IMG/VR virus record: IMGVR_UViG_3300049893_003686
DNA: 64,000 bases
Strand: one strand, 5' to 3'
Source of the DNA: a virus
The notes under the pieces were generated by a model, which was given only the letters and a program-made list of their open reading frames with translations, made no database searches and was not told the DNA's origin. The position numbers and the translations under genes are program-made. How positions within the stretch are numbered: position 1 is the first letter of the stretch; each line of letters starts with the position of its first letter. Below, one piece after another: positions 1 to 43,825 of the stretch.

Positions 1-160
1 GGGCTTCTAGGGCTTATAGGGCTTCTAGGGTTTCTTGGGCTTCTGAGGCTTCTGTGGCTTCTTGGGTTTCTGGGGCTTATAGGGCTTCTTGGGTTTCTGT
101 GGTTTCTGGGTTTTCGGTGGTTTATAGAGGTTATGTGGTCTCTATAGTAAGAGGCGGTAG

Positions 161-3551: not shown

Positions 3552-3589
3552 TTTAAGTATAAAGCAATATACTTCACATAGAGAGTGAC

Positions 3590-4078
3590 ATGAATATCTT
3601 CCTAGTAGATACTGATCCAATTAAAGCAGCACAAGCGTTATGCGACAAACATTGTATCAAAATGATTCTAGAAACAGCACAATTGCTATCAACATCAGTA
3701 TACCTCACAAAAGGAGATTTAACAGGGCTGTATAAGCCAACCCATTTAGCACATCCATGTACTAAGTGGGCCTCAGAGTCTAAGATTAATTTTAATTGGC
3801 TAAAGAACCATGGATTAGGCCTTCTGTCGGAATATACGTTTCGATATCGAAAAGAGCATAAGTCAACACAGATAATATTAAAATGCACTAATGAATCTCT
3901 ACCAGACTTACCTGCTACAGATTTTGTTCAGGTAATGCCAGAGGTATATAGACGACCAGATCCTACAGAAGCATATAGGGCTTATTATAATAGTGCAAAG
4001 TATATGATGGCCACGTGGACAAGGCGGCAGCCTCCAGAATGGTGGTGCTCACAATTGTACGTAGAAAAGCACGAATAA
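3590..4078 (+). CDS. Conserved hypothetical protein
   Basis: 162-aa ORF and the first gene after the repeat region. The motifs DKHCIKMILETAQLLS and HPCTKWA recall a widespread phage/bacterial family that I cannot name with certainty. Confidence 0.7.
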   Translation: MNIFLVDTDPIKAAQALCDKHCIKMILETAQLLSTSVYLTKGDLTGLYKPTHLAHPCTKWASESKINFNWLKNHGLGLLSEYTFRYRKEHKSTQIILKCTNESLPDLPATDFVQVMPEVYRRPDPTEAYRAYYNSAKYMMATWTRRQPPEWWCSQLYVEKHE

Positions 4079-8768: not shown

Positions 8769-8812
8769 AATAGTATTTAGGAATAAATTTCACCATCTCA
8801 ATAAAAAATCTT

Positions 8813-9016
8813 ATGATAACAAGATTAAAACAAAGTCTGAATTTGATTTTAAAAAAACTATCACAGGAGCATAAATCTTCTTTAGATTATGATATTCCTG
8901 AGTTAAATACAATATGCTGGAAATCCCCAGCGTATCCAACTCAAATTCATAAAGAAATACAGTTATTTGATAATGATATAATTAAATGGGAGAGGTATTT
9001 CCCAAGAGTGGAGTAG
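8813..9016 (+). CDS. Hypothetical protein
   Basis: 67-aa ORF only. Confidence 0.5.
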   Translation: MITRLKQSLNLILKKLSQEHKSSLDYDIPELNTICWKSPAYPTQIHKEIQLFDNDIIKWERYFPRVE

Positions 9017-12161: not shown

Positions 12162-13163
12162 GTGACTTTAAATAGTGATTGGCAAATGGCCAAAGTGACA
12201 GACCCTAATATAATAAATTTGGCTGTAGGGGAACCATACTTCCTGCAAAATGCATTGCGACAAAGTAATATTCTAGATAAATGTACTGTACGACTATCTG
12301 GTTTAGAGTACCCACCTTTTGGAGGAGAACCTAAATTAATTGAAGCTATCAAACGGTTGCCTAACTTCGGTGACTATAAGCATGTAGTAATTACTAATGG
12401 GGCAAAGCAGGCCATCTCAGCAGCACTGTATGCTGCAACTGAAGTTAGGCATGCCAAGCGACTCGTACATAGTGCCCCATACTGGCCGTCGTACCCAACT
12501 CTAGCATATCAATGTGGACTTCAGTTCTCTGAAATAGGGAGTGGGTTAGATACGGTAGTTGCCATAACATCGCCAAATAATCCAGATGGAATGCAGGTAT
12601 CGGAACAGAAGTGTTATATTTGGGACGCAGCATATGCGTCTCCTCTATATGGATATAAGGGGGATCATCCGACTGCTGAAGTAGCTATAGTAAGCCTAGC
12701 TAAGTCTTTAGGCATATCAGGGTTACGTATAGGAGCAGCACTTACAAATGATGATGTGCTGGCAAAGTACATGGCATATTTCGTTGAAATATCAACTAGC
12801 GGAGTATCTACAACAGCACAAGAGCAGTGTACAATGCTCATCAAGCATATACTTTCAGATGGAAGTGACGAATTCGCTTCAGTTATTGAGCGCGCTAGAA
12901 GCACACTATCGAACAATCGCAGCTTATTTCGTCAAGTATTATTACCGATTTGTGATGAGGCCAAATTTTCTCACGGTATGTTTGCCTGGTTTAAGCCCAA
13001 TAATAAAGTTGAATTCTCAAATATACTTGAGCATGCAGGAGTTAGGGTAGTAGATGGAGGGGCCTGCGGCGTTCAGGGATGGTTTAGAATGAGTTTAGGA
13101 CTGGATATAAATGCATTTACTGCAGCGATAGAAGCGATATCAACACATATATCAGATCAATAA
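12162..13163 (+). CDS. PLP-dependent aminotransferase, class I/II
   Basis: NLAVGEP, ITSPNNPDG, and SLAKSLGISGLRIGA (the PLP-lysine motif S-x-x-K..G-x-R-x-G). GTG start at 12162 or ATG at 12186. Confidence 0.8.
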   Translation: MTLNSDWQMAKVTDPNIINLAVGEPYFLQNALRQSNILDKCTVRLSGLEYPPFGGEPKLIEAIKRLPNFGDYKHVVITNGAKQAISAALYAATEVRHAKRLVHSAPYWPSYPTLAYQCGLQFSEIGSGLDTVVAITSPNNPDGMQVSEQKCYIWDAAYASPLYGYKGDHPTAEVAIVSLAKSLGISGLRIGAALTNDDVLAKYMAYFVEISTSGVSTTAQEQCTMLIKHILSDGSDEFASVIERARSTLSNNRSLFRQVLLPICDEAKFSHGMFAWFKPNNKVEFSNILEHAGVRVVDGGACGVQGWFRMSLGLDINAFTAAIEAISTHISDQ

Positions 13164-17278: not shown

Positions 17279-18409
17279 ATGAAATTCCCTATTATCGAGC
17301 ACACAATTTTACTTACAATAGCAGGCTCTAGGAGTTACGGTATGCACAAAAGTGACTCCGATATAGACCTAAAAGGGATAGCCATCCCTCCTATAGATTC
17401 CTATATTGGAGTTTTACCAAATTTCGAACAAGTAGAGTCATCAGAAGCAATGATGGTATATTATCCTCTACTATCGAATGATGAGAAAGATATTTCAGAT
17501 AAATATAAGCTTGAAGGGGTTATATATGATTTGCGTAAATTCATACGACTGGCATCTGGTTCAAATCCCAATATCTTAGATGTATTATTTTGCGATGATG
17601 AGCACGTCAGGTTCTCATCAAAGGCAGGAGATATCATAAGGGCTAGCAGAGATCTATTCATATCTGCACAGGCTAAGCATACATATTCTGGTTATGCAAC
17701 GGCGCAATTTAAGCGCATTAAGACTCATAGGGGATATCTGCTAAATGCTCCAAAGACAGAGCCAGACAGGAGTGAGTTCGGTCTATCAAAGGACCACTGC
17801 ATTCCACGTGCCCAGGTAGAGGCATCTTTATCAGAGATTAATAAGAAACTTGATGAGTGGGAATTAGATCTTAGCTCTATAGATTCTGAGTCTGACAGAA
17901 TGTCGATATTAAATAATATTGCACAAGTACTATCAGAAATAATGTCAACAACTGACTCTAAATGGAAGAGCTCCGCTAGAAACATCGGCTATGGCGATAA
18001 CCTTATTGAAATTCTAGACAAGGAGCGTAGATTTAGACAGGCTAAGAACGAATGGGATAAATATCAATATTGGAAGAAGGGGCGAAACTCAGCACGAGCG
18101 AAACTAGAAGAAAAATACGGGTATGATACCAAGCACGCTTCTCACTTAGTTAGATTAATGAGGATGTGTTATGAGATTTTAGTAGATGGCAAGGTCAATG
18201 TCAATCGCAAGAAAATAGATGCCGATGAATTAGTTGCGATTCGAGATGGCTCATGGAGCTACGATAAGCTAGAGGAATTCTTTATAACGATGGATAATAA
18301 ATGCAGCGAGCTGTATAATAGTAAGTCATATAGCATTCCACATAGGGTAGATATGAGTGCGATAAATGCATTGTGCGTACAACTCATCTCCGATAAGTAC
18401 AAAATGTGA
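17279..18409 (+). CDS. Pol-beta-superfamily nucleotidyltransferase, RlaP-like (RNA-repair-associated family)
   Basis: The N-terminal GSRSYGMHKSDSDIDLKG matches the G-S-x-x-Y-G..S-D-x-D minimal NTase motif of that family, as I recall it. Confidence 0.6.
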   Translation: MKFPIIEHTILLTIAGSRSYGMHKSDSDIDLKGIAIPPIDSYIGVLPNFEQVESSEAMMVYYPLLSNDEKDISDKYKLEGVIYDLRKFIRLASGSNPNILDVLFCDDEHVRFSSKAGDIIRASRDLFISAQAKHTYSGYATAQFKRIKTHRGYLLNAPKTEPDRSEFGLSKDHCIPRAQVEASLSEINKKLDEWELDLSSIDSESDRMSILNNIAQVLSEIMSTTDSKWKSSARNIGYGDNLIEILDKERRFRQAKNEWDKYQYWKKGRNSARAKLEEKYGYDTKHASHLVRLMRMCYEILVDGKVNVNRKKIDADELVAIRDGSWSYDKLEEFFITMDNKCSELYNSKSYSIPHRVDMSAINALCVQLISDKYKM

Positions 18410-22845: not shown

Positions 22846-23052
22846 ATGGTATCTACAATGATAATATGTATGTTACTTGGGGTAGCATTAGGTACACCAA
22901 TCGGCGGACTTCTAGCTACGTCTTTTCAAGAAAATCGTTGTGGCGATGAATCATGTCATGGCCGCAAAAGTTCGGTGTGTATAGATGGTCTATGCTCACG
23001 TCACTGTCGTGATCTTCACAACAATAAATGCACTAAAGCATTTATAATGTAG
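22846..23052 (+). CDS. Small membrane/Cys-rich protein
   Basis: N-terminal TM helix followed by 7 Cys in 40 aa. Confidence 0.5.
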   Translation: MVSTMIICMLLGVALGTPIGGLLATSFQENRCGDESCHGRKSSVCIDGLCSRHCRDLHNNKCTKAFIM

Positions 23053-23113
23053 TAATTACTAATGTGGTAAAGCAAGCTATTTCGGCAGCACTATATTTAG
23101 GAGAGAGATAAGT

Positions 23114-24660: not shown

Positions 24661-25164
24661 GTGAAACTTAATGATCTTAAGAATTTCCCGCCCTCCTATA
24701 AACTGAGCCACTTATTGTCACTACAGCGTATCACTCCAGAGTATGGCACGAATATATGCCATCGGTATAGTTATTGGGATGGAATTCTTTCAGGAATACT
24801 AAGGTGGAATGGAGGACTATTCTATTTTCACTGCATTCTTGATGAAATGGATTTTGCCCTTCCGGTATCATCAAATCCACATGATTCAGGCATCGGGTTT
24901 GAACATACTTCTGACGGCACGAGGAGATACTACGCTGTATGTTTGTACTCAACAGCTAAGATGATAGATATGGTAAGAACTGCCGTGTCGCACAGAAGGT
25001 ATGTGAACCCACGGGGTGATTATCGTTATATGGCTAGGCACAATCTTTCAGAAAGTACATTGCTATCAAAAAAGAATGATCGGCCATCATGGTCAAATAG
25101 AAATCTCCGTAAGGTACGTGAGGAGCCCTACGATGGCGAGGTAATTGCCTGGTTTACTCTATAA
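24661..25164 (+). CDS. Hypothetical protein
   Basis: 167-aa ORF with a GTG start. Confidence 0.5.
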   Translation: MKLNDLKNFPPSYKLSHLLSLQRITPEYGTNICHRYSYWDGILSGILRWNGGLFYFHCILDEMDFALPVSSNPHDSGIGFEHTSDGTRRYYAVCLYSTAKMIDMVRTAVSHRRYVNPRGDYRYMARHNLSESTLLSKKNDRPSWSNRNLRKVREEPYDGEVIAWFTL

Positions 25165-25226
25165 TACTATATTTGTTATATAAACATAATTTCCTTATCT
25201 AGAAAAAGGTAACCTGGTGGTGGTTA

Positions 25227-25496
25227 ATGAAAATACTTGAAGTAGACTTCTATTTGGATGGCGGTTCAGCAAAGATTGTTACAGATAATGGCATCTATTT
25301 TGTAAATAGAAGAGTTGATGCTAAAGATAATTGGTGCGAACTATATGATAGGTATCCTGGAGATCGTGAGGCAAAAAAGATATCTCTAGATAAAGACTTG
25401 CTAATCTCTGCTCTAAAAGAATTTACTGTAAACACAGAGATGTCTAATTCTCTAAATTTACTATTAGAACATCTAATAGGCAATGATGTGGCGTGA
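25227..25496 (+). CDS. Hypothetical protein
   Basis: 89-aa ORF with GGTGGTGG upstream. Confidence 0.6.
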   Translation: MKILEVDFYLDGGSAKIVTDNGIYFVNRRVDAKDNWCELYDRYPGDREAKKISLDKDLLISALKEFTVNTEMSNSLNLLLEHLIGNDVA

Positions 25497-25567
25497 TAAT
25501 TAATTGCTCCGGATATCTGGGAGTACACATATAATATAGCATAGGTAGTTGATAACAACAACAAAAT

Positions 25568-25643
25568 GCGCCTGTAGCTCAGCGGATAGAGTACTTGTCT
25601 TCTAAATAAGGTGTCGTAGGTTCGAATCCTACCAGGCGCGCCA
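25568..25643 (+). tRNA. tRNA-Arg (anticodon TCT), CCA encoded
   Basis: Cloverleaf read by hand. Acceptor GCGCCTG/CAGGCGC. D arm GCTC-AGCGGATA-GAGT. Anticodon arm CTTGT-CTTCTAA-ATAAG. Variable loop GTGTC. T arm GTAGG-TTCGAAT-CCTAC. Discriminator G followed by CCA. Confidence 0.9.
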
Positions 25644-25708
25644 CTTAGTCAGTTAATTAATCACTCCATACTGCTATCTCGTAGATAATATCGTTCACAA
25701 CGTCATAT

Positions 25709-25792
25709 GGGCCAGTAGACGCGCTCCGCTCATAACGGAGTAAGGGTAATTTGGTTCTGAAAATGTGGGTTCAAGTCCCACCTGGCCCACCA
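25709..25792 (+). tRNA. Atypical tRNA-like element, copy 1 (CAU anticodon loop, no canonical D arm, 24-nt variable region, CCA encoded)
   Basis: Acceptor GGGCCAG/CTGGCCC. Hairpin CTCCG-CTCATAA-CGGAG. T arm GTGGG-TTCAAGT-CCCAC. Discriminator A followed by CCA. Only 8 nt (TAGACGCG) lie in the D-arm position. Identical to 42249..42332. Confidence 0.5.
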
Positions 25793-25936
25793 TTTACACG
25801 TACTCAATTCCTAATCTGACGTACGGTAATAGAATGATTAGGATCTCACTCTTCGGGATTTAAGAGCAACCCTTTAGCCTTAGGCGTTGTAGTACGGAGA
25901 GAAAAGGCCATCTTCTTTTAAGGAGAGCGTCAGCTA

Positions 25937-26560
25937 ATGCTTAGAGCTGAAGGTAAGCTGCCTAGAGATGTATACGTAGCTTGTTCTGGCGGCGTAGACA
26001 GTATGGCAGTGCTTGCGTTTTTAATGCGCCGAGAAGTTAAGCCACAAGTAGTCTACTTTAATCATAGGACTGATCATTCAGAAAAAGCAGAAGAACATGT
26101 ACGTACATTCTGCACTAAGCACGCCCTCAATCTTACCATAGGAACTATTCTTCGTGATCGCCTTAGCCGTGAGTCTAAAGAGGAATTTTGGCGAAACGAG
26201 AGATATAAATTCCTGCACGGACTATCTCTACCAGTAATTACAGCGCATAACTTAGACGATTGTATTGAAACATGGATCTTCTCTTCATTGCATGGAGAAG
26301 GAAAAATGATTCCATACAGAAATCGAAATGTAATTAGACCATTTAGACAAACACATAAGGCAGAGTTTATCAGATGGTGCACGAAGAATAACATCCCATG
26401 GATAGAGGACGAGTCAAATAAGAATATATTATTTGCACGCAATAGAATCAGACATGCACTTATGCCAGAAGTTCTAAAAATCAATCCTGGAATTTCTAAA
26501 GTAATTAGAAAGAAAATCTTGGCAGAAAGTGATATGCATAGGCTTTCCCCGCCACTCTAA
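25937..26560 (+). CDS. tilS: tRNA(Ile)-lysidine synthetase-like PP-loop ATPase (N-terminal catalytic domain only)
   Basis: PP-loop ACSGGVDSMAV, then ..VYFNHRTDHSEKAEEHVRTFC..L.. as in TilS. AAGGAGAG SD. At 207 aa it lacks the long TilS C-terminal domains. Confidence 0.7.
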   Translation: MLRAEGKLPRDVYVACSGGVDSMAVLAFLMRREVKPQVVYFNHRTDHSEKAEEHVRTFCTKHALNLTIGTILRDRLSRESKEEFWRNERYKFLHGLSLPVITAHNLDDCIETWIFSSLHGEGKMIPYRNRNVIRPFRQTHKAEFIRWCTKNNIPWIEDESNKNILFARNRIRHALMPEVLKINPGISKVIRKKILAESDMHRLSPPL

Positions 26561-26572
26561 AGAAGGATAATT

Positions 26573-27049
26573 ATGTACTATAACCATATGGCCTTTGCCG
26601 AACGTGTTGCTCGCAAATTTAGCAATGAAGATAGGCATCTTGTTGCCGCACTGCAGATTCGGGGAGGTAATATAGTCAATTATGGGATTAACCGACTTCA
26701 GTATAAAAGAGGCAGTAGCTATTTCGACTGTAGTATTCATGCAGAGGTAGACCTCGCGAGAAAAAGTGGATTCTCGCTAAATGGAGATAAAATCTGCATA
26801 TACCGGTTCAATCGAGCCCAAGAAACAAATGACTATAGAGACAGTAAGCCATGTCCTTTATGCGTAAGGGTCTTATTCCAATCTGGAGCAGGCAAGGTAT
26901 ATTATTCTTTAAACAACAAGGTTCTTAGTAGCAAGGTACACTCTCTTCCCATGCTGGCAGTGGATCCAATCATGTTTACCAAGCAGTATATTCCAAAATA
27001 CAGTACCGAAAGTACAAGGCATATGGATTTTGATGGTTACCTCATTTAG
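26573..27049 (+). CDS. CDA-fold (cytidine/deoxycytidylate-type) zinc deaminase, specificity unknown
   Basis: HAE (..CSIHAEVD..) and PCxxC (..SKPCPLC..) zinc-binding motifs with the expected spacing. Confidence 0.6.
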   Translation: MYYNHMAFAERVARKFSNEDRHLVAALQIRGGNIVNYGINRLQYKRGSSYFDCSIHAEVDLARKSGFSLNGDKICIYRFNRAQETNDYRDSKPCPLCVRVLFQSGAGKVYYSLNNKVLSSKVHSLPMLAVDPIMFTKQYIPKYSTESTRHMDFDGYLI

Positions 27050-27058
27050 GATTCAAAT

Positions 27059-27283
27059 ATGAACGCACGCTTATTGCCGGGAATCTTTTGGCCATATGGT
27101 GATTTCGACACTAAAGTTCGAATGTCCACATTACTATGGAATATTAAATGCGAGTATTTGTTGACAGCTGAACTAGCAGATGATGGGTCGATTTATGATC
27201 AGTCCGAGATAGAGTGTGAATTAGCTCGCGCACGCAGATATATTGTCAAGCAGACAGACGAGCTAATATCGCTACTTGCCTAA
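27059..27283 (+). CDS. Hypothetical protein
   Basis: 74-aa ORF. Confidence 0.5.
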   Translation: MNARLLPGIFWPYGDFDTKVRMSTLLWNIKCEYLLTAELADDGSIYDQSEIECELARARRYIVKQTDELISLLA

Positions 27284-27293
27284 TAAAGCTATT

Positions 27294-27692
27294 ATGACAT
27301 CAAGTTTTACTACACGAGCAGAGCAAGCAGCATTGCTTTTATCTAGATTGAATGATGATGACATTGCAGATGAGAGAGCCAGAAATGCATTGCGCACGAT
27401 TACAAAGTCAGAACTAGAAACATGTATAAAATTATACTTTGCTTGGTGCAGCATTGCGATTACGGCAAAGAAGTTATCAGATATAGGCTACGAGCTAGAT
27501 CCGCAATGGGAAGAGCGGCTTACATCTGCATACATGCATATAATTAATCTCTGCGTATCTAATCTTCAAGTAGCAGATCTAGCAAAGTTCAATCGAAATA
27601 ATATAATTATATTTTCAAATGCATTACACTTGAATCCATATGTTGCAGTAGCTGGTTATACTGAAGAATTAGATCTAAAAGACTTCTTATAG
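27294..27692 (+). CDS. Hypothetical protein
   Basis: ATG at 27294; the track's start is TTG 27276. Confidence 0.55.
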   Translation: MTSSFTTRAEQAALLLSRLNDDDIADERARNALRTITKSELETCIKLYFAWCSIAITAKKLSDIGYELDPQWEERLTSAYMHIINLCVSNLQVADLAKFNRNNIIIFSNALHLNPYVAVAGYTEELDLKDFL

Positions 27693-28430: not shown

Positions 28431-28510
28431 GAGAATTAATCTAGATATAAGGTCACATTAACTATAACTATAGCGTCATGCTGGCGTATATAGGAATAAT
28501 CGGAGAAAAG

Positions 28511-30802
28511 ATGAAGAAATATATTTTCGCAACGCTACTGCTCGCAACTACAGCGGCAGCATCAAATAGCGATAAATCTCATCATGAAAAGGTGGAGATT
28601 TGTCATAAGGATCATCATGAAATTAGTGTCGACGAGCATGCTGTCGAGGCGCATATTGATCACGGCGATTGTCTCGGGACATGTCCATGCGCCCCATTGC
28701 CAGAATGCCAATCTGATGCTGATTGTACTAACGATCTATTCTGTGATGGCAACGAATCATGCCTCAATGGAAGCTGTGTGGCAGGAGAGTCTCCGTGTGA
28801 GCACAGCTTATCATGTGACGAAGTGGAAGACCTATGTGTGCAACAGCCAGATTGCATTACCGATAGCGATTGTGACGACGGAGTATTTTGTAATAATCAA
28901 GAATTATGTTTAAATGGCTCCTGTGTTTCTTTTGGAGATAGTCCATGCCCAGACTACATTTGTGTAGAAAAGTATGCCATATGCGTATTGCCACCAGAGT
29001 GTCATGTAGATGACGATTGTACGAATGGACTATTTTGCGACGGGCACGAATTATGTTCAAATGGAGCATGCGTATCCAATGTACTTCCATGCCCTGAAAC
29101 AGAACAGTGTGACGAAGAATCTGATGCTTGTTTTAATGCAGGTGAGGGTGAAGGAGAAGGCGAGGGAGAAGGTGAGGGTGAAGGAGAAGGCGAGGGAGAA
29201 GGTGAGGGTGAAGGAGAAGGCGAGGGAGAAGGTGAGGGTGAAGGAGAAGGCGAGGGAGAAGGTGAAGGCGAGGGTGAAGGTGCCGAGAAAACAAACTTAT
29301 TTGTCTCAGGGTCAGGGATTTTTTCATGCTCTGAGTCATCATCTCCAGACCTGTTTATACTTGCACTATTCTTGCCAGCACTGCTAATATCACAAAAGCG
29401 TAGGGCACTAGTAGCAACCTTAGTAATTGGACTATTTTCATTCTCTGCTTCTGCAGAAGGATTAAATCGTGTAGGTGGCCCAACATCATTTAACGATTCC
29501 CCGCAAGCATCATCAGCGGATCTACTGCCTAACCTTACATTGCAGACTGGTCTAAACTTAGATTACTCGCATGCTCCATTGGTGCTCAGAGACGTAGCTT
29601 TTATTAAGCATAGTGATTTGGTCGAACACCAATTCTCAAGTAGCATCAATGCAGCAATGGGATTTCGCGATGTCGTGCAATTAGATCTAGCATTGCCCAT
29701 TTCAGTCGCAACAGGACAGGGTTTAAATTTGGATGGAACACCATCAGCTGGTCTTCAGGATATGACAGCTGGTGTTAGATTGCGGTTGACTGACAGCAAA
29801 GCACCATTACGCACTGCCCTTAGCCTTAAAGGTACGATGCCAACATCGCTATTGTCATTTAATGGAATGCCAACATTTGGAGAGGTATTCCCGACGCTTA
29901 CCCCAGGAGTCTTACTTACTGCCGGCAATGAGTTGGCATCAGTTACACTAAATACAGGATACACTATTCGTATTCCTAAAAATGTAGCGGATCTTCAAAT
30001 GGGACATACTGTAAATGCAGCTGTAGGTGGACAACTGTGCTTACTTAAAGATAGCTTGTGGTTAGTCGGAGATGTTGGCACAAGTCTATCAGCACAAGGC
30101 TTGTTTACAAATCGATTATTTATGCCAGTAGAGGCGACACTTGGCTTTAAAGGAAAGCACGGTCCTTTCTATGGAATGGTAGCCGCTGGCTCTGGGCTAT
30201 TGCCCGACGTTGGGACCCCTGATGTGCGCGTTTTGGCTTCATTAGGTCTTAATTTTGACTTTGCAACTAAGCAGAAAGCACGTACCACTAGCAAGTTAGT
30301 TACAGAGCATAATCCTCTGCCACCTCCACTTGATTCCGATGGCGATGGGATCCTTGATCAAGATGATAAGTGTCCAAATGATCCAGAGGATTTTGATGGA
30401 TTTGAGGATTCAGATGGGTGCCCAGAGCAAGAGTTAGTAGTAATAGAGTCAGAAAAAATCATATTGTTATCCCCAGTGTACTTTTTCTTTGACTCAGATC
30501 AAATTAAACCAGAAAGCTTTCAAGTATTGAATGATGTGGCAACTGTACTAAAAGAGCATACTGAGATTAAGCTATTGTCTATTGAGGGGCATGCCTCAGC
30601 AGAAGGTGAATTGGATTATAACCAAGCACTTAGTGAACGCCGAGCTTTGGCAATAGTAAAATTCCTCCAAAAGGCAGGAGTTGCTACAGAACGACTTGTT
30701 GCACTCGGGCATGGAGAGAATAATCCGGCTGAATCAAATAAGACAAAAGCTGGACGTGAAAAAAATCGCCGCGTAGAGTTTCGTATTCTAGAAAAGCAGT
30801 GA
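28511..30802 (+). CDS. Composite OmpA-family envelope protein: signal peptide, 4 Cys-rich repeats, (EG)n tract, internal sorting-signal-like/TM pair, putative beta-barrel region, thrombospondin type-3 (DxDxDG) repeats, OmpA C-terminal peptidoglycan-binding domain
   Basis: GGAGAAAAG SD precedes ATG 28511 (MKKYIFATLLLATTAAAS). Four repeats match DxDCxxxxFCxGxExCxNGxC. The TSP3 repeats read DSDGDGILDQDDKCPNDPEDFDGFEDSDGCPE. The OmpA_C domain reads ..IEGHASAEG..YNQALSERRA..NRRVEF. Confidence 0.85.
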   Translation: MKKYIFATLLLATTAAASNSDKSHHEKVEICHKDHHEISVDEHAVEAHIDHGDCLGTCPCAPLPECQSDADCTNDLFCDGNESCLNGSCVAGESPCEHSLSCDEVEDLCVQQPDCITDSDCDDGVFCNNQELCLNGSCVSFGDSPCPDYICVEKYAICVLPPECHVDDDCTNGLFCDGHELCSNGACVSNVLPCPETEQCDEESDACFNAGEGEGEGEGEGEGEGEGEGEGEGEGEGEGEGEGEGEGEGEGEGEGEGAEKTNLFVSGSGIFSCSESSSPDLFILALFLPALLISQKRRALVATLVIGLFSFSASAEGLNRVGGPTSFNDSPQASSADLLPNLTLQTGLNLDYSHAPLVLRDVAFIKHSDLVEHQFSSSINAAMGFRDVVQLDLALPISVATGQGLNLDGTPSAGLQDMTAGVRLRLTDSKAPLRTALSLKGTMPTSLLSFNGMPTFGEVFPTLTPGVLLTAGNELASVTLNTGYTIRIPKNVADLQMGHTVNAAVGGQLCLLKDSLWLVGDVGTSLSAQGLFTNRLFMPVEATLGFKGKHGPFYGMVAAGSGLLPDVGTPDVRVLASLGLNFDFATKQKARTTSKLVTEHNPLPPPLDSDGDGILDQDDKCPNDPEDFDGFEDSDGCPEQELVVIESEKIILLSPVYFFFDSDQIKPESFQVLNDVATVLKEHTEIKLLSIEGHASAEGELDYNQALSERRALAIVKFLQKAGVATERLVALGHGENNPAESNKTKAGREKNRRVEFRILEKQ
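29141..29282 (+). repeat. Perfect 30-bp tandem repeat x4 plus a partial copy, encoding (GE)n inside the OmpA-family gene
   Basis: GGTGAGGGTGAAGGAGAAGGCGAGGGAGAA occurs at 29141, 29171, 29201 and 29231 with no mismatch seen. A divergent partial copy spans 29261-29282. Confidence 0.95.
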
Positions 30803-30857: not shown

Positions 30858-31628
30858 ATGAGCAGTAATGAACTTGGTTTGAAGATTAAAAGTTTATATG
30901 AAAATCGTACACGACTCTTGCTAGATCAAGATGAGTATATAATTATCAGAATTGATGGTAAGAATTTTTCAAGATATACTCGTAAGCTCAAAAAGCCATT
31001 CGATCAGGATCTTGCAGATGATTTCGACCAAACTGCTAAGATATTGTGCTCTCAAATCATGGGAGCACATATGGCATATACTCAAAGTGATGAGATAAGT
31101 ATTGTAGTTTCGAATTTTAGTTCTTCAGGTAAGGACATCTGGTTTAACGGAAATATACAAAAAATAGTTTCAGTATCATGTTCAATGGCAACAGCATCAT
31201 TTAATGATTCAAGAATAAAGCGAAGTGTTGATTATAAAGGTGGAATTTTTGATTCTAGGGTATTTACAATACCTGATCGCTCATCAGTATTAGAGTATTT
31301 AACCTGGAGACAAAAGGATGCAAGTAGAAATTCCATTTCCATGATTGCAAGAAGCGTAATGAGTAGTAAAGAAATGCATGGAATTTCTACTGGCAAAATA
31401 ATAGAGATTTTAAAAGATAGAGGAATAGACCTCAAAATATATAATCAAGGTCTATTGTATGGAAGAATTATTTTCAAAGAAAAATTTACAGTAACCGCTA
31501 CTCATAGTGAATACGGGATTGCTCAAAATTCTGATTCACTCAGAACAAGATGGGTAGCTAAGACAGCACCAAATTTCTCTAAAGAAGACATTTCCATAGA
31601 ATTGATTCCAGAAAGAAAGCTTTCTTGA
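30858..31628 (+). CDS. Thg1-like protein (tRNA-His guanylyltransferase / 3'-5' polymerase family, TLP)
   Basis: IIRIDGKNFSRYT..KPFDQDLADDF..MAYTQSDEISIV matches the Thg1 palm-domain blocks. Confidence 0.8.
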   Translation: MSSNELGLKIKSLYENRTRLLLDQDEYIIIRIDGKNFSRYTRKLKKPFDQDLADDFDQTAKILCSQIMGAHMAYTQSDEISIVVSNFSSSGKDIWFNGNIQKIVSVSCSMATASFNDSRIKRSVDYKGGIFDSRVFTIPDRSSVLEYLTWRQKDASRNSISMIARSVMSSKEMHGISTGKIIEILKDRGIDLKIYNQGLLYGRIIFKEKFTVTATHSEYGIAQNSDSLRTRWVAKTAPNFSKEDISIELIPERKLS

Positions 31629-36039: not shown

Positions 36040-36435
36040 ATGCTGTTCAAGTACTTAACTTTGGATCCAATGGATAATTTGCTTGGGTCATTTGGGCGTA
36101 CATATAACTCAACCCACAATAAGCTACCAGCGAATATTTCATCTCAACAAGATAAATACGAAATAAGCATCCTTATTCCAGGATTTACCAAAGACGAGAT
36201 TAAGTTAACTGTAAGTGGTAATACTATGCTAATTTTAGCTGAAAAATCAACCATTTCTGATGTGGAATATTTCCATAAAGAATTTGCAATTGAAACAGTA
36301 GAGCGTAAAATATCATTACCTTCTTCAGTTAAGAAGGATGCCATTTCAGCATCATATAATGAAGGAATTCTGACCATTACACTCCCACACTCTAACTTAA
36401 GAAATGAGTCTTCCATTGAAATTCAAGTTTGCTAA
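36040..36435 (+). CDS. Hsp20/alpha-crystallin small heat-shock protein
   Basis: The alpha-crystallin domain reads ..ISILIPGFTKDEIKLTVSGNTMLILAEK..ISLPSSV..ISASYNEGILTITLP. A GGAGG SD precedes ATG 36040. Confidence 0.85.
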   Translation: MLFKYLTLDPMDNLLGSFGRTYNSTHNKLPANISSQQDKYEISILIPGFTKDEIKLTVSGNTMLILAEKSTISDVEYFHKEFAIETVERKISLPSSVKKDAISASYNEGILTITLPHSNLRNESSIEIQVC

Positions 36436-37300
36436 CAATCACCATAATGGTATAGATTACTGTATCATCTATCATGCTAACTGTGCCGACGGCTTTGCGG
36501 CTGCTTGGGCCATATGGAAAGTGCTAGGGGACCAGCTGGCCAGCTATCATCCGGCAGCATACGGCTCAGAGCCACCTGAAGAAATAAAGGATAGGCACGT
36601 AGTTATAGTAGATTTTTCATACTCTCGTAAGGTTCTTGAAGAAATCAAGAGCAAGGCAAAAAGCCTGTTAGTTCTCGATCATCATAAAAGTGCTGAAGAG
36701 AGTTTGCGTGATTTCGAGGGAGCTCATTTTGATATGAATCGCAGCGGGGCCGGTATGGCATGGGATTATTTCCATGAAAAGCCCCGTCCGCCACTCATTA
36801 ATTATGTAGAGGATCGAGACTTATGGAACTGGAAGCTGCCATATGCTAAAGAACTAACCGCTATGTTTGAAATTGATAATCAATCATTTCAAGATCTCTC
36901 TGAATTTAATAGCAAGTTAGAGTCACCTGAAGAATTTCAAGTCTTGGTAACTAAGGGGTCTGCTGTCCTAGAATATAAGAATTCTAGAGTTAAAATGCTG
37001 TCCTCCAAACCTTATATGGTAGACATATCCAGTATATGTATGTTAGATGACCTGACATTGCAGATTCCATGTGTCAATTCTCAACTTTTTCAAAGTGAAA
37101 TTGGTAATGTTTTGGCTCAAAAGCATCCAATGGCAATAGTTTGGTATCGCGCAGAAGACGGATCATATAGACACTCATTGCGTTCGAATGGCAAAATTGA
37201 TTGTAGCAAGATTGCTCAATTTTGGGGAGGCGGGGGTCATGCAAATGCAGCAGGATTTACAACGCAAGAACCCTTAGTTAGAATGGATGATAAAAGCTAA
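36404..37300 (+). CDS. DHH/DHHA1-family phosphoesterase
   Basis: YHANCADGFAAAW, the DHH motif in VLDHHKS, and the C-terminal GGGGHANAAG (DHHA1 GGGH). Confidence 0.8.
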   Translation: MSLPLKFKFANNHHNGIDYCIIYHANCADGFAAAWAIWKVLGDQLASYHPAAYGSEPPEEIKDRHVVIVDFSYSRKVLEEIKSKAKSLLVLDHHKSAEESLRDFEGAHFDMNRSGAGMAWDYFHEKPRPPLINYVEDRDLWNWKLPYAKELTAMFEIDNQSFQDLSEFNSKLESPEEFQVLVTKGSAVLEYKNSRVKMLSSKPYMVDISSICMLDDLTLQIPCVNSQLFQSEIGNVLAQKHPMAIVWYRAEDGSYRHSLRSNGKIDCSKIAQFWGGGGHANAAGFTTQEPLVRMDDKS

Positions 37301-37852: not shown

Positions 37853-39460
37853 ATGTCAATATTAAATACCGATGCAACTCAAACTCAGATATATGATAAT
37901 CGACAGATAAGAAATTCTGCTGGCGGCTATTCATTTGCAGTGGAAAATATGGATTATGTGCGGCGATTTCTAATTTTAGGAAGCGAGGGCGCGCAATATA
38001 GCCTACAGAATAGGCCAACTCTGTCGTTAGAGAACTGCCCGCATATATTGTTTATGCTAGATGCCGATGGCCAAAAAGTAGTAGAAGAGCTGGTCAAGGT
38101 ATCATTACAAGGCAGGGCGCCGAAGCAAGAGCCGACACTATTCGTATTAGCACTGGCAGCTAGACATAAGGATCTCGCTGTGCGTAAAGCCGCATTTGAT
38201 GCCGTGCAGAAGGTATGTCGCACAGCAACTATGCTATTTACCTTCTTAGATTTCTATAAAAAGTCCGGGGTGACATCTGGCTGGGGTCGCCTTATGCGAG
38301 ATGCGATATCGTCATGGTATAATAATAAGGATTTGCAATCTTTAATATATCAAGTTACGAAATATGGTAGTAGAAATGGGTGGTCGCATCAAGATGTGCT
38401 ACGTTTAGCACACACAAGGCCAGTAGATCAAGATCATTCTCTGTTATATAAGAAGATTACTTCTAAAAATAAGTTTAATATCGACATCAATATCGCTTCT
38501 GATAAGAATGCTTTTAATAAACTGCTAGCCATTGAAGCGGTGAAATTAGCAACAGAGGCAAAAAGTATCATCCCGTTAATTACAGAATTTAATTTAGTAC
38601 ATGAGCAGGTACCATCATCGCTAAAGCTTTGTCCCGATGTATGGGATGCATTGCTAGATAATATGCCATTAACTGCATTAATTCGTAATCTAGGAGCGAT
38701 GACATCCTCCGGGTTGCTTGTTAATGGAAATAGTGCTTCAAGAAGAGTGAGAGAAAAGCTATCTAATTTAGATACAATTAAGAGTGCAAGAATACATCCA
38801 TTTAATGTACTCACAGCATACAATACCTATGCAAAAGGAGTTGGTCAATTAGGTCACAAAAAATGGAACCCTAGTGAAGATATTATTGAAGCGCTAGATA
38901 GCCTATTCTATACCTCATTTACATTTATAGATCCATCGCATAAGCGCACACATCTCGCTATTGATGTATCGCGTTCGATGGATATGGGTACAATTCTTGG
39001 CTCGCCGGGGATGTCTCCTCGATTCGGCGCAGCCGCAATGTCAATGGCAACGCTGCGTTCTGAGGATAATGTTTCGATGAGCGCATTTTCGCATACATTA
39101 GTACCGCTACAATTTTCACCCAAAGATGATTTGCAGACAGTTATCAAGAAGATGAGGTCTATTAAAATGGGCGCCACAGATTGCGCCCTACCAATAACCA
39201 CTGCCATGCAGTCGAAGACCCCTATTGATACATTTGTTATATATACCGATAATGAAACTTGGTTCGGAAACGTTCACCCAATGGCAGCATTGCGCCAATA
39301 TCGAGATAGAATGGGAATTCCTGCCAGACTCATTGTCGTTGCAATGAAAGAAACAAACTTTACCATTGCAGATCCCGAAGATGCGGGTGCATTGGATGTA
39401 GTTGGATTTGATTCTGCCACTCCAGCTGTCATAGCAGAATTTTCACGCGGGGAGTTATAA
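37853..39460 (+). CDS. Ro60-related TROVE-domain protein with a C-terminal vWA domain
   Basis: The N-terminal NSAGGYSFAVENMDYVRRFLILGSEGAQY is characteristic of Ro/Rsr. The MIDAS DxSxS motif appears as IDVSRSM. 535 aa. Confidence 0.9.
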   Translation: MSILNTDATQTQIYDNRQIRNSAGGYSFAVENMDYVRRFLILGSEGAQYSLQNRPTLSLENCPHILFMLDADGQKVVEELVKVSLQGRAPKQEPTLFVLALAARHKDLAVRKAAFDAVQKVCRTATMLFTFLDFYKKSGVTSGWGRLMRDAISSWYNNKDLQSLIYQVTKYGSRNGWSHQDVLRLAHTRPVDQDHSLLYKKITSKNKFNIDINIASDKNAFNKLLAIEAVKLATEAKSIIPLITEFNLVHEQVPSSLKLCPDVWDALLDNMPLTALIRNLGAMTSSGLLVNGNSASRRVREKLSNLDTIKSARIHPFNVLTAYNTYAKGVGQLGHKKWNPSEDIIEALDSLFYTSFTFIDPSHKRTHLAIDVSRSMDMGTILGSPGMSPRFGAAAMSMATLRSEDNVSMSAFSHTLVPLQFSPKDDLQTVIKKMRSIKMGATDCALPITTAMQSKTPIDTFVIYTDNETWFGNVHPMAALRQYRDRMGIPARLIVVAMKETNFTIADPEDAGALDVVGFDSATPAVIAEFSRGEL

Positions 39461-41161: not shown

Positions 41162-41677
41162 GTGGCTCTAATAGGATTCAATCCACGTCATAACTATGAT
41201 GTACGACTTACTATAGAAGATGGCCCGCAACTTGGAGTTTATAAGTTACAGGATGCAATAAGAATTGCCACAGAGCGTGGATTGGATCTGGTAAATATAT
41301 CGCCGCAAGCTAAGCCGCCAGTAGCAAAGATAATGGATCATGGTCGGTTCAAGTATCGCCAAAAGCAGGCTGCTAAAGAGGCTAAGAAGAAGCAGCATGT
41401 GGTTGTGCTCAAAGAAATCAAATTAGGCGTAAACATAGAGAGGCACGATCTTGATGTTAAGCTATCTAAGATTAAAGAATGTATTGTTGATGGATGCAAG
41501 GTAAAGATTGTCATTCGATTCTATGGTAGAGAAAACGCTCATAAGGAACTCGGTTCTACATTGATGGATGCAATTCTTACGGAAATCAAAGATTTTGTCA
41601 TAATAGAAACCCCACCTACCTCAGAACGCAGGGAGATTTTCGCTATAGTGAGACCTAAAAATGATAAAAAAGCTTAA
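41162..41677 (+). CDS. infC: Translation initiation factor IF-3
   Basis: The N-domain reads VRLTIEDGPQLGVYKLQDAIRIATERGLDLV, the linker reads KYRQKQAAKEAKKKQ, and the C-domain reads LKEIKLGVNIERHDLDVK..FYGRENAH. The predicted GTG start abuts the upstream stop. Confidence 0.9.
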   Translation: MALIGFNPRHNYDVRLTIEDGPQLGVYKLQDAIRIATERGLDLVNISPQAKPPVAKIMDHGRFKYRQKQAAKEAKKKQHVVVLKEIKLGVNIERHDLDVKLSKIKECIVDGCKVKIVIRFYGRENAHKELGSTLMDAILTEIKDFVIIETPPTSERREIFAIVRPKNDKKA

Positions 41678-41822
41678 AACAATAGCATATACTCTTGCTG
41701 GAACTACAGTTACGCTAGCATCACTAATTTATATTGAGAGGGCGCTCAGCAATATTATTTTAAAGCATGCAAGTAAGCATGCTCGTAAGATTAATAGTGT
41801 AGATGAGAAAAATGACAGATAA
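41661..41822 (+). CDS. Possible 53-aa membrane peptide overlapping the infC end
   Basis: Begins MIKKLKTIAYTLAGTTVTLASLIYIERAL.. and is below the track cutoff. It overlaps both neighbours by 17-20 nt. Confidence 0.3.
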   Translation: MIKKLKTIAYTLAGTTVTLASLIYIERALSNIILKHASKHARKINSVDEKNDR

Positions 41823-42201
41823 TATACTATATGTTGATTTTAAGAATAAAAAACGAATAGAACACTCCATTGCAGAGGCCCCATCTGCAGTGCCTACATT
41901 GTTTAATGAAAAAAGGCGGAGATTCCTAGAGCTACTAGAACTTGGCATTGTCCGGACGGTATCTTCTGGTAATGATCCAAATCTATTGCTTCCACAGCAC
42001 ATATACGCTCAAGAAGTTCATTTAAATTGGAGCTCTAAATTTCTGATATCAGATTTAGTGATCAATGATAATGGTATAAGTGGAACATTATCATTTAATC
42101 AAACGCCATCGCATGTTACGGTACCGTGGAGTTCTATTATTTCCATGTGGAGCCTCAGTCATCCAAAAGATTATAGATTCGACTGGGATATAAATGAGTG
42201 A
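41803..42201 (+). CDS. SspB-like (ClpXP adaptor family) protein
   Basis: ..HLNWSSKFLISDLVINDNGISGTLSFNQTPSHVTVPWSSIISMWS aligns by eye with E. coli SspB ..LNIAPRAVGNLELANDEVRFNARFGGIPRQVSVPLAAVLAIYA. Confidence 0.5.
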   Translation: MRKMTDNILYVDFKNKKRIEHSIAEAPSAVPTLFNEKRRRFLELLELGIVRTVSSGNDPNLLLPQHIYAQEVHLNWSSKFLISDLVINDNGISGTLSFNQTPSHVTVPWSSIISMWSLSHPKDYRFDWDINE

Positions 42202-42248: not shown

Positions 42249-42332
42249 GGGCCAGTAGACGCGCTCCGCTCATAACGGAGTAAGGGTAATTTGGTTCTGA
42301 AAATGTGGGTTCAAGTCCCACCTGGCCCACCA
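42249..42332 (+). tRNA. Atypical tRNA-like element, copy 2 (identical to 25709..25792)
   Basis: The 84 nt are identical by eye, including the CCA. Identity continues for 3 nt (TTT) downstream, while the upstream flanks differ. Confidence 0.5.
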
Positions 42333-42346
42333 TTTTAACATCTTAG

Positions 42347-43097: not shown

Positions 43098-43340
43098 ATG
43101 TTTATGATGACAGCAAAAATATCTCTCGATGCAGATAGCAATCTCGTCATCAGTATGGATGATTACCCAAATAGATATCTTAGCGACTCATTAATTAAAC
43201 TGTCTATAGATAATAAAACATTCTCCGCTCCATCAGGATCAAGTCCTCAGAATCCTTGGAGTTGGAGATTTGCACAACAATTCAAACCAGCTCTTCTTTC
43301 TTTGTTAGAAAAGCATAAGATTGCAATAGAATATTTGTGA
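43098..43340 (+). CDS. Hypothetical protein
   Basis: 80-aa ORF. Confidence 0.55.
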   Translation: MFMMTAKISLDADSNLVISMDDYPNRYLSDSLIKLSIDNKTFSAPSGSSPQNPWSWRFAQQFKPALLSLLEKHKIAIEYL

Positions 43341-43825
43341 TGTCAAGCAGACCTGATTGGGATCAGTATTTTCTTAACTTAGCTGCAGCTGCAGCCACTC
43401 GTGCTACATGTGATCGGGCTAAAGTGGGCTGTGTTCTGGTAAGAGATAACAGGATTATCTCTACGGGATACAATGCATCTATTAGCGGGCATGCACATTG
43501 CGACGATGCTGGGCATATAATTGTGAATAATTCATGCATACGAGCTGCTCATGCGGAAGAGAATGCAGTTATTACGGCAGCTAAATTCGGCACATCAATT
43601 GCTGATACGACCGCATATACTACACATTTTCCGTGCTGGAGATGCTTTAGGATGCTAGCAAATGCCGGGATTACGCGTATAGTATTCTTAAATATTAAAA
43701 TTAGTGATATGACGGCCGAGATACTAGACGAGTATCTCGCATCTTCAATAATGATCGAGAATGGTGAAGGTGCAACCTTGACCGATTTAAAACAAGTTAT
43801 CATTCAACAGATATCTAATAGATAA
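43337..43825 (+). CDS. dCMP deaminase (ComEB/Dcd-type)
   Basis: WDQYFLNLA..TCDRAKVGCVLV..HAEENA..PCWRC..GITRIVF. Start is GTG 43337 or ATG 43340. Confidence 0.9.
   Translation: MMSSRPDWDQYFLNLAAAAATRATCDRAKVGCVLVRDNRIISTGYNASISGHAHCDDAGHIIVNNSCIRAAHAEENAVITAAKFGTSIADTTAYTTHFPCWRCFRMLANAGITRIVFLNIKISDMTAEILDEYLASSIMIENGEGATLTDLKQVIIQQISNR

Follow-up and report, generated by a model that had tools for sequence, protein, structure and literature searches.

The bacterial enzyme TilS turns C34 of the isoleucine tRNA with anticodon CAU (tRNA-Ile2) into lysidine, so that AUA is read. Phages may carry the enzyme themselves: the cultured jumbo phages PA5oct and MIJ3 have an annotated TilS of 203 aa, and in PA5oct three canonical CAU tRNAs and a tRNA-Arg(UCU) lie 6-10 kb from it. 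Given these cases, phage tRNA islands that include a TilS gene are already a known kind of arrangement. The TilS of PA5oct has been noted as 'host-like' and as transcribed (PMC7318152), and a vibriophage tRNA(CAU) has been measured to contain lysidine (k2C34) (PMC13191261). The island described here lies in a viral stretch of 64,000 nucleotides (IMG/VR record IMGVR_UViG_3300049893_003686, hereafter the window) and comprises, in order, a tRNA-Arg(UCU), an 84-nt tRNA-like element with a CAU anticodon loop, a gene encoding a 207-aa TilS-like protein (mini-TilS), and a gene encoding a 158-aa deaminase. What is surprising about it is the architecture of the tRNA, rather than the occurrence of TilS in the island. 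The CAU element has no D-arm hairpin, and it is one member of a large phage tRNA class, called class A below, whose members share its layout. The island is probably a phage module for reading AGA and AUA, with the CAU RNA as a functional tRNA of the Ile2 type and of a non-canonical class.

The window tRNA resembles bacterial tRNA-Ile2(CAU) (E. coli ileX) in carrying A37, A38, C4-G69, C5-G68, and A73 along with the CAU anticodon. It differs in having no D-arm hairpin and in that the tRNA and TilS are both phage-encoded. Mini-TilS, for its part, resembles the bacterial enzymes (E. coli; A. aeolicus, 1wy5; the G. kaustophilus complex, 3a2k) in its SGGxDS domain, and the chemistry predicted for it is theirs: C34 would become lysidine, the identity of the tRNA would pass from Met to Ile, and the codon read from AUG to AUA. 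Unlike the solved TilS proteins (317-464 aa), it is without the C-terminal domains that bind the tRNA body and acceptor. In this it is like PA5oct, MIJ3, and the 'huge phages' of 635-642 kb (LR745206, LR756502), whose N-domain-only proteins of 203 aa are 45-46% identical to that of the window (46% for PA5oct and MIJ3). PA5oct is similar also in being a large phage with translation genes and in having Arg(UCU) and CAU tRNAs in the same genome region. Its CAU tRNAs are canonical, however, whereas that of the window is of class A, is duplicated, and stands directly upstream of TilS; the covariance model of class A described below (R1) found no class-A element near the PA5oct TilS and tRNA array.

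Outside of mitochondria, the D-arm of the cloverleaf is treated as near-universal and is assumed by tRNA finders, identity rules, and structural models. A 2020 review of non-canonical tRNAs places the loss of the D-arm only in mitochondria (PMC7609411). Like class A, metazoan mt-tRNA-Ser(AGY) and nematode mt-tRNA-Ser have no D-arm hairpin and a short connector between acceptor and anticodon stems; they function in translation, as is proposed for the phage class. D-arm-less mitochondrial tRNAs are shrunken, have lost contacts between D-loop and T-loop, and depend on adapted factors (PMC7609411, PMC4013460). The phage class, by contrast, is full-length or longer (77-90 nt), has a normal T-arm, a relocated GG strand, a covarying pair of the Levitt type, and a new covarying helix, and it must work with ordinary bacterial machinery. 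A second comparison is with allo-tRNAs and the (8/4) tRNA-Ser/His (Mukai et al., PMC5389517), which also depart from the cloverleaf, were discovered in metagenomes and in clusters of phage tRNAs, and escape standard finders or are scored wrongly by them. These have an altered acceptor/T branch (8/4 or 9/3) and keep the D-arm, whereas class A keeps the 7/5 branch and is rewired in the region of the D-arm and anticodon arm.

The CAU element and its second copy

The features named in the original prediction, among them a tRNA-Arg(UCU) followed by a CAU-loop tRNA-like element, were all recovered at the same positions by ARAGORN, Rfam, and the reading of open reading frames (ORFs). ARAGORN calls a single tRNA across the 64-kb window, the tRNA-Arg(UCU), and gives no call for the CAU element. 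Rfam matches the element to its tRNA family (RF00005) over 25709-25789, at 42.1 bits, the family's gathering score being 29. The element can be read as GGGCCAG-UA-GACGCG-CUCCG-CUCAUAA-CGGAG-UAAGGG-UAAUUUGGUUCUGAAAAU-GUGGG-UUCAAGU-CCCAC-CUGGCCC-A-CCA (Table 1). There is no D-arm hairpin: eight nucleotides (UA and GACGCG) stand in that place, and the Rfam alignment fills 3 of 13 D-arm positions. From the anticodon arm to the T-arm there are 24 nt, and a D-loop-like strand, UAAUUUGGU, sits here, 3' of the anticodon arm. All of the bases that make up the tertiary signature are present: U8, A9, UAA, GG, and a closing U, which gives A-U at the pair resembling R15/Y48.

The window holds a second copy, which the original prediction had overlooked, as it had the element's membership in a large non-canonical class. 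It was found through a search for the anticodon-loop hairpin (stem-loop at 42269). The repeat (42249-42335) matches the first copy at 87 of 87 nt, and the identity begins exactly at position 1 of the tRNA, the flanks being unrelated. The first 32 nt of the element, searched for as an exact string in IMG/VR, gave no match.

Some other readings of the element's parts were tried and set aside. The minimum free energy fold places a transposed D-arm hairpin (AUUU-GGUUCUGA-AAAU) in the 24-nt insert; it was rejected, as the hairpin is not conserved in the alignment of the family, which favors instead a single-stranded D-loop-like segment together with a second helix (helix 2, below). The junction pattern CTCATAANNNNNTAAGGGTAAT gave three chance matches, none of them tRNA-like. 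The idea of a Y RNA, prompted by a Ro60 gene in the window, was likewise rejected, since Rfam detected none anywhere in the window and the anticodon arm of the element is complete.

A class of phage tRNAs with the same layout

A scan of IMG/VR for CAU loops with a T-loop 26-36 nt downstream gave 111 loci, where by a rough estimate only a few would be expected by chance. Parsing them yielded three kinds of unusual CAU tRNA, of which class A has the layout found in the window. Further members came from metagenome and GTDB scans with a tighter pattern, and with all anticodons counted the class runs to more than 150 unique sequences. In the 185,579 species genomes of GTDB, the CAU-type pattern matched 90 loci, three of which are class A; the two of these with titles shown are contigs of metagenome-assembled genomes.

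A class-A tRNA begins with the 5' strand of a 7-bp acceptor stem, then U-A, U or C, three nucleotides (h5), one nucleotide, and the anticodon arm. In the 3' half, (U/A)GAAA or a linker of 4 nt comes first and the three nucleotides of h3 next; U-A-R-N-N-G-G-U ... A-C-A-Y then leads to the T-arm and the 3' acceptor strand. In an alignment of 57 unique CAU members (A2), the proposed pairs are formed in 93.4% of cells, as against 61.8% in shuffles, and the covariation score is 0.80, as against 0.18 (0 of 500 shuffles reach 0.80). Sliding the 3' partner by 1-3 columns, as a control, leaves covariation at 0.13 or below. Helix 2, formed by h5 and h3 (columns 12-14 with 38-40), reaches 95.9% pairing, and each of its three pairs shows double-sided changes (pair counts GC35/CG10/UA5/AU3 and GC29/CG21/AU3); its variants include CGG/CCG, CAC/GUG, CGC/GCG, AGG/CCU, CCG/CGG, CUC/GAG, CUG/CAG, and CGA/UCG. 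RNAalifold, run unguided, yields the same helix. Helix h5/h3 may stack on the anticodon stem in the manner usual for a D-stem. Most members of the class have U·U at 27-43 and hence an anticodon stem of 4 bp.

The strand from h3 to the T-arm has its own regularities. The purine that follows UA and the base just 5' of the T-stem occur as A-U (41), G-C (11), or G-G (5), never as A-C or G-U, and such strict covariation is the behavior of the R15-Y48 Levitt pair. The GG in the same strand is invariant in A2, though no search pattern demanded it. The covariation and the invariant GG together indicate that this strand carries the signature of a D-loop (A14, R15, G18, G19, N20 ... Y48).

A covariance model (R1) was built from A2. 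It gives each of the two window copies 65 bits (E=5.7e-15) and the canonical tRNA-Arg only 25.6 bits. From this score the membership of the window element in the class is clear, while its helix 2 is weaker than that of the rest of the class. The element falls within a 'long' subtype that includes L090, L098, and L200 (L numbers designate the loci compared). ARAGORN overlaps four of 70 class-A elements, with wrong ends, and misses the other 66.

Unusual CAU tRNAs outside of class A were also seen. One has a canonical D-arm together with an approximately 20-nt variable arm (GGGACGUUAGCUUAGUUGGUUAAAGCUCCUGGCUCAUAACCGGGUGAUGAGG...), hence resembling class II, with an anticodon of the Met/Ile2 kind; it occurs in L023, L032-L034, and L042 and in more than 40 other IMG/VR loci, many of them from sample 3300045988. 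In L028, L072, L102, L131, and other IMG/VR loci, a CAU anticodon is set in a class-II body like that of Leu, Ser, or Tyr tRNAs, with a GGAGAAAUGGUAUCUC D-arm and a long variable arm. These could represent recoding or mis-sense decoding. In three SAR86 genomes from GTDB (L265, L269, L289), a match to the CAU-loop tRNA-like pattern could not be resolved into the class-A structure; two of them (L265 and L289) have, about 1 kb from the match, a gene with about 30% identity to the window's TilS.

Restriction to isoleucine and arginine

The architecture is not confined to the CAU anticodon. In the loci examined, R1 found it with GAU (12), UAU (8), UCU (5), ACG (3), and UCG (3). An IMG/VR pattern scan blind to the anticodon found at least 107 unique well-formed members, and among the matches listed the anticodons are UAU (44), GAU (21), CAU (16), ACG (10), UCU (9), and CCU (2), with five more that read as register-shifted UAU or ACG. 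Among these matches there is no amino acid besides those of the Ile, CAU, and Arg types, so that overall the anticodons of the class are those of isoleucine (GAU, UAU, CAU) and arginine (UCU, ACG, UCG, CCU).

The base after GG goes with the anticodon. In the loci examined and the scan matches listed, it is A in every Arg-type member and, with one exception, U or C in the Ile and CAU types. A20 is a classical identity element for arginyl-tRNA synthetase (ArgRS), and the A after GG presumably corresponds to it. Its occurrence solely with Arg anticodons suggests that the relocated strand is read as a D-loop by the synthetase, and the match of base to anticodon is indirect evidence that class-A tRNAs may be aminoacylated. 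As for the CAU members, they share their build with the GAU and UAU isoleucine tRNAs, and 50 of the 57 in A2 have C4-G69, which is said, from work of Nureki in 1994, to be an identity pair for isoleucyl-tRNA synthetase (IleRS) in E. coli. These two facts favor Ile2 over Met identity. By the rules known from E. coli, which are host-specific, C4-G69, C5-G68, A73, and A37 A38 are body determinants of the Ile type rather than the Met type; that the window element has all of these is supportive, not decisive.

Class-A tRNAs keep the company of ordinary ones. Canonical tRNA genes lie within 2 kb of 47 of 70 class-A elements, most often Asn(GUU) (30) and Arg(UCU) (26), and in the arrays inspected, the class-A tRNAs are on the same strand as their neighbors, with tRNA-like spacing. 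Members occur also in cultured phages, and both of the copies checked are without annotation: in Kehishuvirus 'tikkala', a crAss-like phage, a stretch of 90 nt left unannotated between tRNA-Trp and tRNA-Met is taken up by a GAU member (OQ198717, 95577-95653), and in Streptomyces phage Stanimal there is a CCU member (OP021680, 91430-91506). In some arrays, whole sets are of class A. That of L070 (3900-5200) has two CAU tRNAs, GAU, UAU, UCG, and ACG, making up all of its Ile and Arg tRNAs, and that of L128 (6200-7000) has CAU, GAU, UAU, and UCG. In both arrays, the tRNAs for other amino acids are canonical.

TilS and its neighboring tRNAs

The original prediction described the 207-aa protein as TilS-like with a catalytic domain only, and this is borne out. 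The ORF has an SGGVDS PP-loop, matches Pfam ATP_bind_3 (PF01171, E=1.8e-32), and passes the NCBIfam equivalog for the TilS N-terminal domain (TIGR02432 lysidine_TilS_N, 123.4 bits against a cutoff of 93.6). With the full-length TilS model (NF007942), it reaches 55.9 bits against a cutoff of 606. Its best match in PDB is A. aeolicus TilS (1wy5), over residues 25-226 and ending there, and it keeps the motifs TAHxxDD, RPxx, EDxSN, and RNRIRH. The C-terminal domains (CTDs) of TilS, CTD1 in type II and CTD1 and CTD2 in type I, are absent. By these matches, the protein is predicted to be the TilS N-terminal catalytic domain. Homologs of this size, about 200 aa, are abundant: there are 1430 matches, and the best 120 of the 1430 are all 193-236 aa.

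Next to such genes, a CAU tRNA is found in at least eight diverged lineages. In the closest relatives (L010-L018 and L133, TilS 65-69% identical), the pair of TilS and deaminase and the next four genes are in the same order. Three of these (L011, L013, and L133, TilS 68-69%) have a D-arm-less CAU element directly upstream of TilS, with three differences from that of the window; L014/L015 and L016 (65-67%) have a canonical 77-nt CAU tRNA (9904-9980 in L014), with a tRNA-Arg(UCU) before it. In L208, where TilS identity is 54%, a D-arm-less CAU element is again directly upstream, with a compensatory change from U-A to C-G in the anticodon stem. Canonical CAU tRNAs adjoin still more distant TilS genes in L004 and L027. 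In L237 (37%), a class-A CAU tRNA lies about 550 nt downstream of TilS, with a gene for an HNH endonuclease between them. Overall, the neighbor is of class A in the window, L011/L133, L208, and L237 (TilS identity 37-69%) and canonical in L004, L014, L016, and L027. Relatives repeat the order Arg(UCU), CAU tRNA, TilS. In L014, there is also a class-A tRNA-Ile(GAU) (8787-8863; R1 82.6 bits, Rfam tRNA 31.7), 1.1 kb upstream of the canonical CAU tRNA beside its TilS.

The adjacent deaminase

The 158-aa protein was described in the original prediction as an HAE/PCxxC deaminase distinct from the canonical dCMP deaminase at 43337, and so it is. Its zinc-site motifs are H56-A-E58 and P93-C-P-L-C97, with HAE and PCxxC invariant across homologs, and its Pfam match (dCMP_cyt_deam_1, PF00383) is weak, 28.9 bits, yet above the threshold of 25. 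Its close homologs number only about ten and all belong to this phage clade; the family profile draws in thousands of distant, small, unannotated deaminases. An extension of about 40 aa at the C-terminus is conserved only within its own small clade.

The suggestion that the protein is of the TadA type, editing A34 of a tRNA, did not hold up. When the profile is compared with PDB, the top four matches are dCMP deaminases, from S-TIM5 (4p9c, E=3e-10, 43.6 bits), S. mutans, T4, and human; dCMP deaminases as a group score 30-44 bits and TadA/Tad2 (among them 1z3a) 20-23. An AlphaFold (AF2) model, with a predicted local distance difference test score (pLDDT) of 80, has a fold of the cytidine deaminase (CDA) type, for which Foldseek returns cytidine, dCMP, and blasticidin-S deaminases first, at a template modeling (TM) score of about 0.5, and TadA at about rank 50. 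NCBIfam gave the protein no TadA match. Profile and structure thus place 26573..27049 with nucleotide deaminases, a grouping that the original prediction had itself counted against a role in tRNA editing. The window also has no tRNA-Arg(ACG), and the local tRNA-Arg has U34, offering no A34 to edit. The protein is like the dCMP deaminases of S-TIM5 and T4 (Cd, 1vq2) in its CDA fold and HAE and PCxxC ligands; it is unlike them in its low identity (about 21%) and TM score (about 0.45-0.5). The conclusion is that it is not a TadA and is most likely a second nucleotide deaminase, predicted to be of the dCMP type.

The deaminase is absent beside TilS outside of the clade (L001-L009, L237); in L208 only about 216 nt 3' of TilS are covered, too short to judge. 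The gene between TilS and the tRNA in L237 had been considered as a deaminase and was rejected, since it encodes the HNH endonuclease. The context of a remote deaminase homolog, P0132, was uninformative, its contig carrying a eukaryote-type Rpb2 and probably coming from a giant eukaryotic virus.

Proposed decoding of AGA and AUA

The claim that AGA and AUA are favored codons proved correct: in 61 ORFs of the window, whose G+C content is 39%, AGA makes up 37% of Arg codons and ATA 41% of Ile codons (30.9 per 1000). A module for decoding them is supported by this codon usage, by the match to the TilS N-terminal domain, by the recurrent adjacency of CAU tRNA and TilS, and by the Arg(UCU) neighbors. 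It was also proposed to be self-contained, and that part fails: no aminoacyl-tRNA synthetase was among the window ORFs scanned, so charging must depend on the IleRS and ArgRS of the host.

The module might work as follows. The phage would transcribe tRNA-Arg(UCU) and the two copies of class-A tRNA(CAU). Mini-TilS would adenylate C34 of the latter and add lysine; consisting only of the anticodon-binding catalytic domain, it would need neither a D-arm nor an acceptor stem. Host IleRS would then charge the k2C34 tRNA, which would read AUA, as tRNA-Arg(UCU) would read AGA, and the phage would thereby provide for the two A-ending codons whose use in its genome is heaviest when set against the tRNA pools typical of bacteria. 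Synthetases, the formation of threonylcarbamoyladenosine (t6A) at position 37, and tRNA processing would come from the host.

As for the shape of the RNA, nucleotides 11-13 would pair with three nucleotides on the 3' side of the anticodon arm, and the short helix so formed would lengthen the anticodon helix, with a 1x5 internal loop between the two. The T-arm would then be reached by a single strand bearing the D-loop signature, U-A14-R15-N-N-G18-G19-(U or A)20 ... Y48, and the contacts of the elbow (U8-A14, R15-Y48, and GG with the T-loop) could still form, giving an L-shape.

Several observations weigh against this account. A TilS consisting of the N-domain only is not known to be active. 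Many phage contigs with class-A CAU tRNAs have no TilS in the flanks examined, and mini-TilS loci L001-L003 and L005-L009 have no CAU tRNA nearby; the pairing of CAU tRNA with TilS is frequent, not obligatory. The window element scores 65 bits with R1, while typical members score 83-98, and its helix 2 is poor (C-G, G·G, C-G), with the same mismatch in L011 and L208. That mismatch is the main structural uncertainty for the window RNA. Finally, some of the regularity of A2 is by construction: the search patterns imposed the CAU loop, the TAR motif, and the T-loop, and U8-A9 and acceptor pairing served as filters.

Four other explanations deserve comparison with an Ile2-type tRNA made for mini-TilS. 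The CAU element might be an elongator tRNA-Met, or an unmodified tRNA that reads AUA as Met, leaving mini-TilS to act on other tRNAs, such as the tRNA-Ile2 or tRNA-Met of the host. The CAU anticodon and A73 suit Met as well as Ile2, and arrays with a class-A CAU tRNA often have just one other CAU tRNA. The 4-bp anticodon stem that U·U leaves in most of the class also fits, as a 2026 hypothesis ties 4-bp stems on tRNA-Met(CAU) to the reading of AUA (PMC13092985). The stem of the window element, however, has 5 Watson-Crick pairs; the architecture is otherwise found only with Ile (GAU, UAU) or Arg anticodons among the matches listed; and a class-A CAU tRNA adjoins TilS in four separate lineages. 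Furthermore, C3-G70, an element recognized by methionyl-tRNA synthetase, is not conserved in A2, unlike C4-G69. Met identity is therefore unlikely. The same may be said of a non-translational mimic of tRNA, serving as a decoy for host nucleases that target tRNA, as a primer, or as a ligand of Ro60, the Thg1-like protein, or RlaP. The absence of a canonical D-arm would suit such a role, all three of these proteins are encoded in the window, and phage tRNAs are known to counter tRNA-cleaving defenses (PMC12409363). Yet the class retains what translation calls for (the 7/5 acceptor/T branch, a 7-nt loop, U33, a purine at 37, A73), its members sit in ordinary tRNA arrays, and a decoy would have no need of an A20 present only when the anticodon is that of arginine. 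Even less credible, by a wide margin, is a tRNA pseudogene in decay through deletion of the D-arm and insertion into the variable region. Rejection by ARAGORN, a modest Rfam score, and an imperfect helix 2 in the subtype are what one would expect of it; two identical copies, an element kept with a compensatory change in its stem where TilS has diverged to 54% identity, and strong covariation over more than 150 unique sequences are not, and this reading appears to be contradicted already by the conservation data.

The remaining explanation concerns the deaminase, which might be coupled to the tRNA module as a C-to-U or A-to-I editor, for example by changing C34 of a CAU tRNA into U34 and so opening another way to read AUA. 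Its gene begins 12 nt past the TilS stop codon, the two remain paired in all close relatives, its catalytic motifs are intact, it is a second deaminase in a phage that already has a canonical dCMP deaminase, and known nucleotide deaminases are only distant matches (TM about 0.5). Nevertheless, the profile groups with dCMP deaminases rather than TadA, the gene is missing at the TilS loci outside of the clade, and no A34 tRNA is nearby. Since the whole neighborhood is syntenic within the clade, adjacency to TilS is weak evidence of coupling. A role in tRNA editing is improbable, if perhaps slightly less so than a Met or decoy role for the CAU element.

With an Ile2-type tRNA as the preferred reading, a broader proposal can be put forward, for which the grounds for and against seem about equal: class A may be a distinct and previously unrecognized tRNA architecture of phages, in which the D-arm is replaced by a helix enclosing the anticodon arm and by a relocated D-loop strand, which is restricted to Ile and Arg, works with bacterial IleRS, ArgRS, EF-Tu, and ribosomes, and goes unseen by standard finders, and which is here matched with a single-domain TilS needing no contacts with D-arm or acceptor stem. 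No description of phage tRNAs lacking a D-arm was found in the literature searched, coverage of which was incomplete and so no proof of novelty. Whether the architecture is both real and undescribed could, in our judgment, go either way.

Implications

If the class is as proposed, it demonstrates an L-shape built with a different connectivity of strands, presumably on tRNAs that work on bacterial ribosomes, with R15-Y48, G18 G19, and A20 kept on a rewired backbone. Because ARAGORN misses 66 of 70 elements and the two copies checked in cultured phages are unannotated, phage tRNA counts are probably too low, and with them the estimated coverage of AUA, AUY, AGA, AGG, and CGN codons. Several questions become testable: why only Ile and Arg tRNAs have the architecture, how an N-domain-only TilS picks its substrate, and whether the rewiring evades defenses that target tRNA or the modification enzymes of the host. 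The architecture could also serve as a scaffold for orthogonal tRNAs.

The locus and its phage

Table 1. Positions of the island genes, of the parts of the first CAU tRNA copy, and of two related features of the window.
Feature	Coordinates	Strand	Evidence
tRNA-Arg(UCU), canonical, reads AGA	25568-25643	+	ARAGORN; Rfam RF00005 67.7 bits
Class-A tRNA, anticodon CAU, copy 1, encoded CCA, 84 nt	25709-25792	+	Rfam RF00005 42.1 bits; model R1 65 bits; conserved in three relative lineages
Copy 1, acceptor stem, 7 bp, perfect (GGGCCAG/CUGGCCC)	25709-25715 / 25782-25788		
Copy 1, U8-A9	25716-25717		
Copy 1, connector including 5' strand of helix 2	25718-25723		
Copy 1, anticodon stem CUCCG/CGGAG, 5-bp Watson-Crick	25724-25728 / 25736-25740		
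Copy 1, anticodon loop CUCAUAA (7 nt, U33, purine 37)	25729-25735 (CAU 25731-25733)		
Copy 1, linker and 3' strand of helix 2	25741-25746		
Copy 1, D-loop-like strand UAAUUUGGUUCUGAAAAU	25747-25764		
Copy 1, T-arm, perfect, 5-bp stem (GUGGG-UUCAAGU-CCCAC)	25765-25781		
Copy 1, A73	25789 (CCA 25790-25792)		
Mini-TilS, predicted N-terminal catalytic domain only, 207 aa	25937-26560	+	Pfam ATP_bind_3, TIGR02432
Divergent CDA-fold zinc deaminase (predicted), 158 aa	26573-27049	+	HAE and PCxxC; PF00383 28.9 bits
Class-A CAU tRNA, copy 2	42249-42332	+	Rfam 42.1 bits; R1 65 bits
Canonical dCMP deaminase	43337-43825		87.8 bits

The window is part of a large (huge) AT-rich phage; contigs bearing the closest TilS homologs reach 368 kb. 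Besides the genes in Table 1, it encodes ClpB-like, FtsK, NAMPT, DHODH, DNA ligase, Dam methylase, IF-3, Thg1-like, Ro60/TROVE, and RlaP proteins. Between the CAU element and the TilS ORF there is a gap of 144 nt. A scan of 25150-27400 for promoters and terminators found sites no more numerous than in shuffled sequence, and blastn of the 2.1-kb island against isolated phages gave matches confined to the tRNA-Arg and part of tilS.

Other parts of the window may be noted in their own right. A set of genes for the care of RNA is found at 17279-18409, 30858-31628, 36404-37300, and 37853-39460, its members being an RlaP-type nucleotidyltransferase, a Thg1-like protein (of the family that repairs tRNA 5' ends), a DHH/DHHA1 phosphoesterase, and a Ro60/TROVE protein with a vWA domain. 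Just upstream of the second tRNA copy (41162-42201) are genes for a full-length IF-3 homolog (IF3_N and IF3_C, 41162-41677) and an SspB-like protein. A gene at 28478-30802 encodes a secreted protein of 774 aa whose N-terminal region is rich in Cys and which also has a long (GE)n run, Asp repeats like those of thrombospondin type 3, and a C-terminal OmpA domain; genes with OmpA domains occupy the same position in relatives (L011). Two copies of a 50-nt direct repeat, 86% identical and 10.7 kb apart, lie at 12382-12431 and 23047-23096, one within an aminotransferase-like gene and one immediately upstream of the gene at 23114. Finally, positions 1-3600 hold at least eight tandem small ORFs on the + strand, of 83-98 aa, whose products start with MIS(Y/H)(A/V).VY(F/L)Y and continue with repeats of the (G/R/V)AS type, with a 9-nt period. 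A 44-nt repeat recurs at the 5' ends of these ORFs (159, 407, 673, 966, 2629, 2841, 3026, 3274, and 3477).

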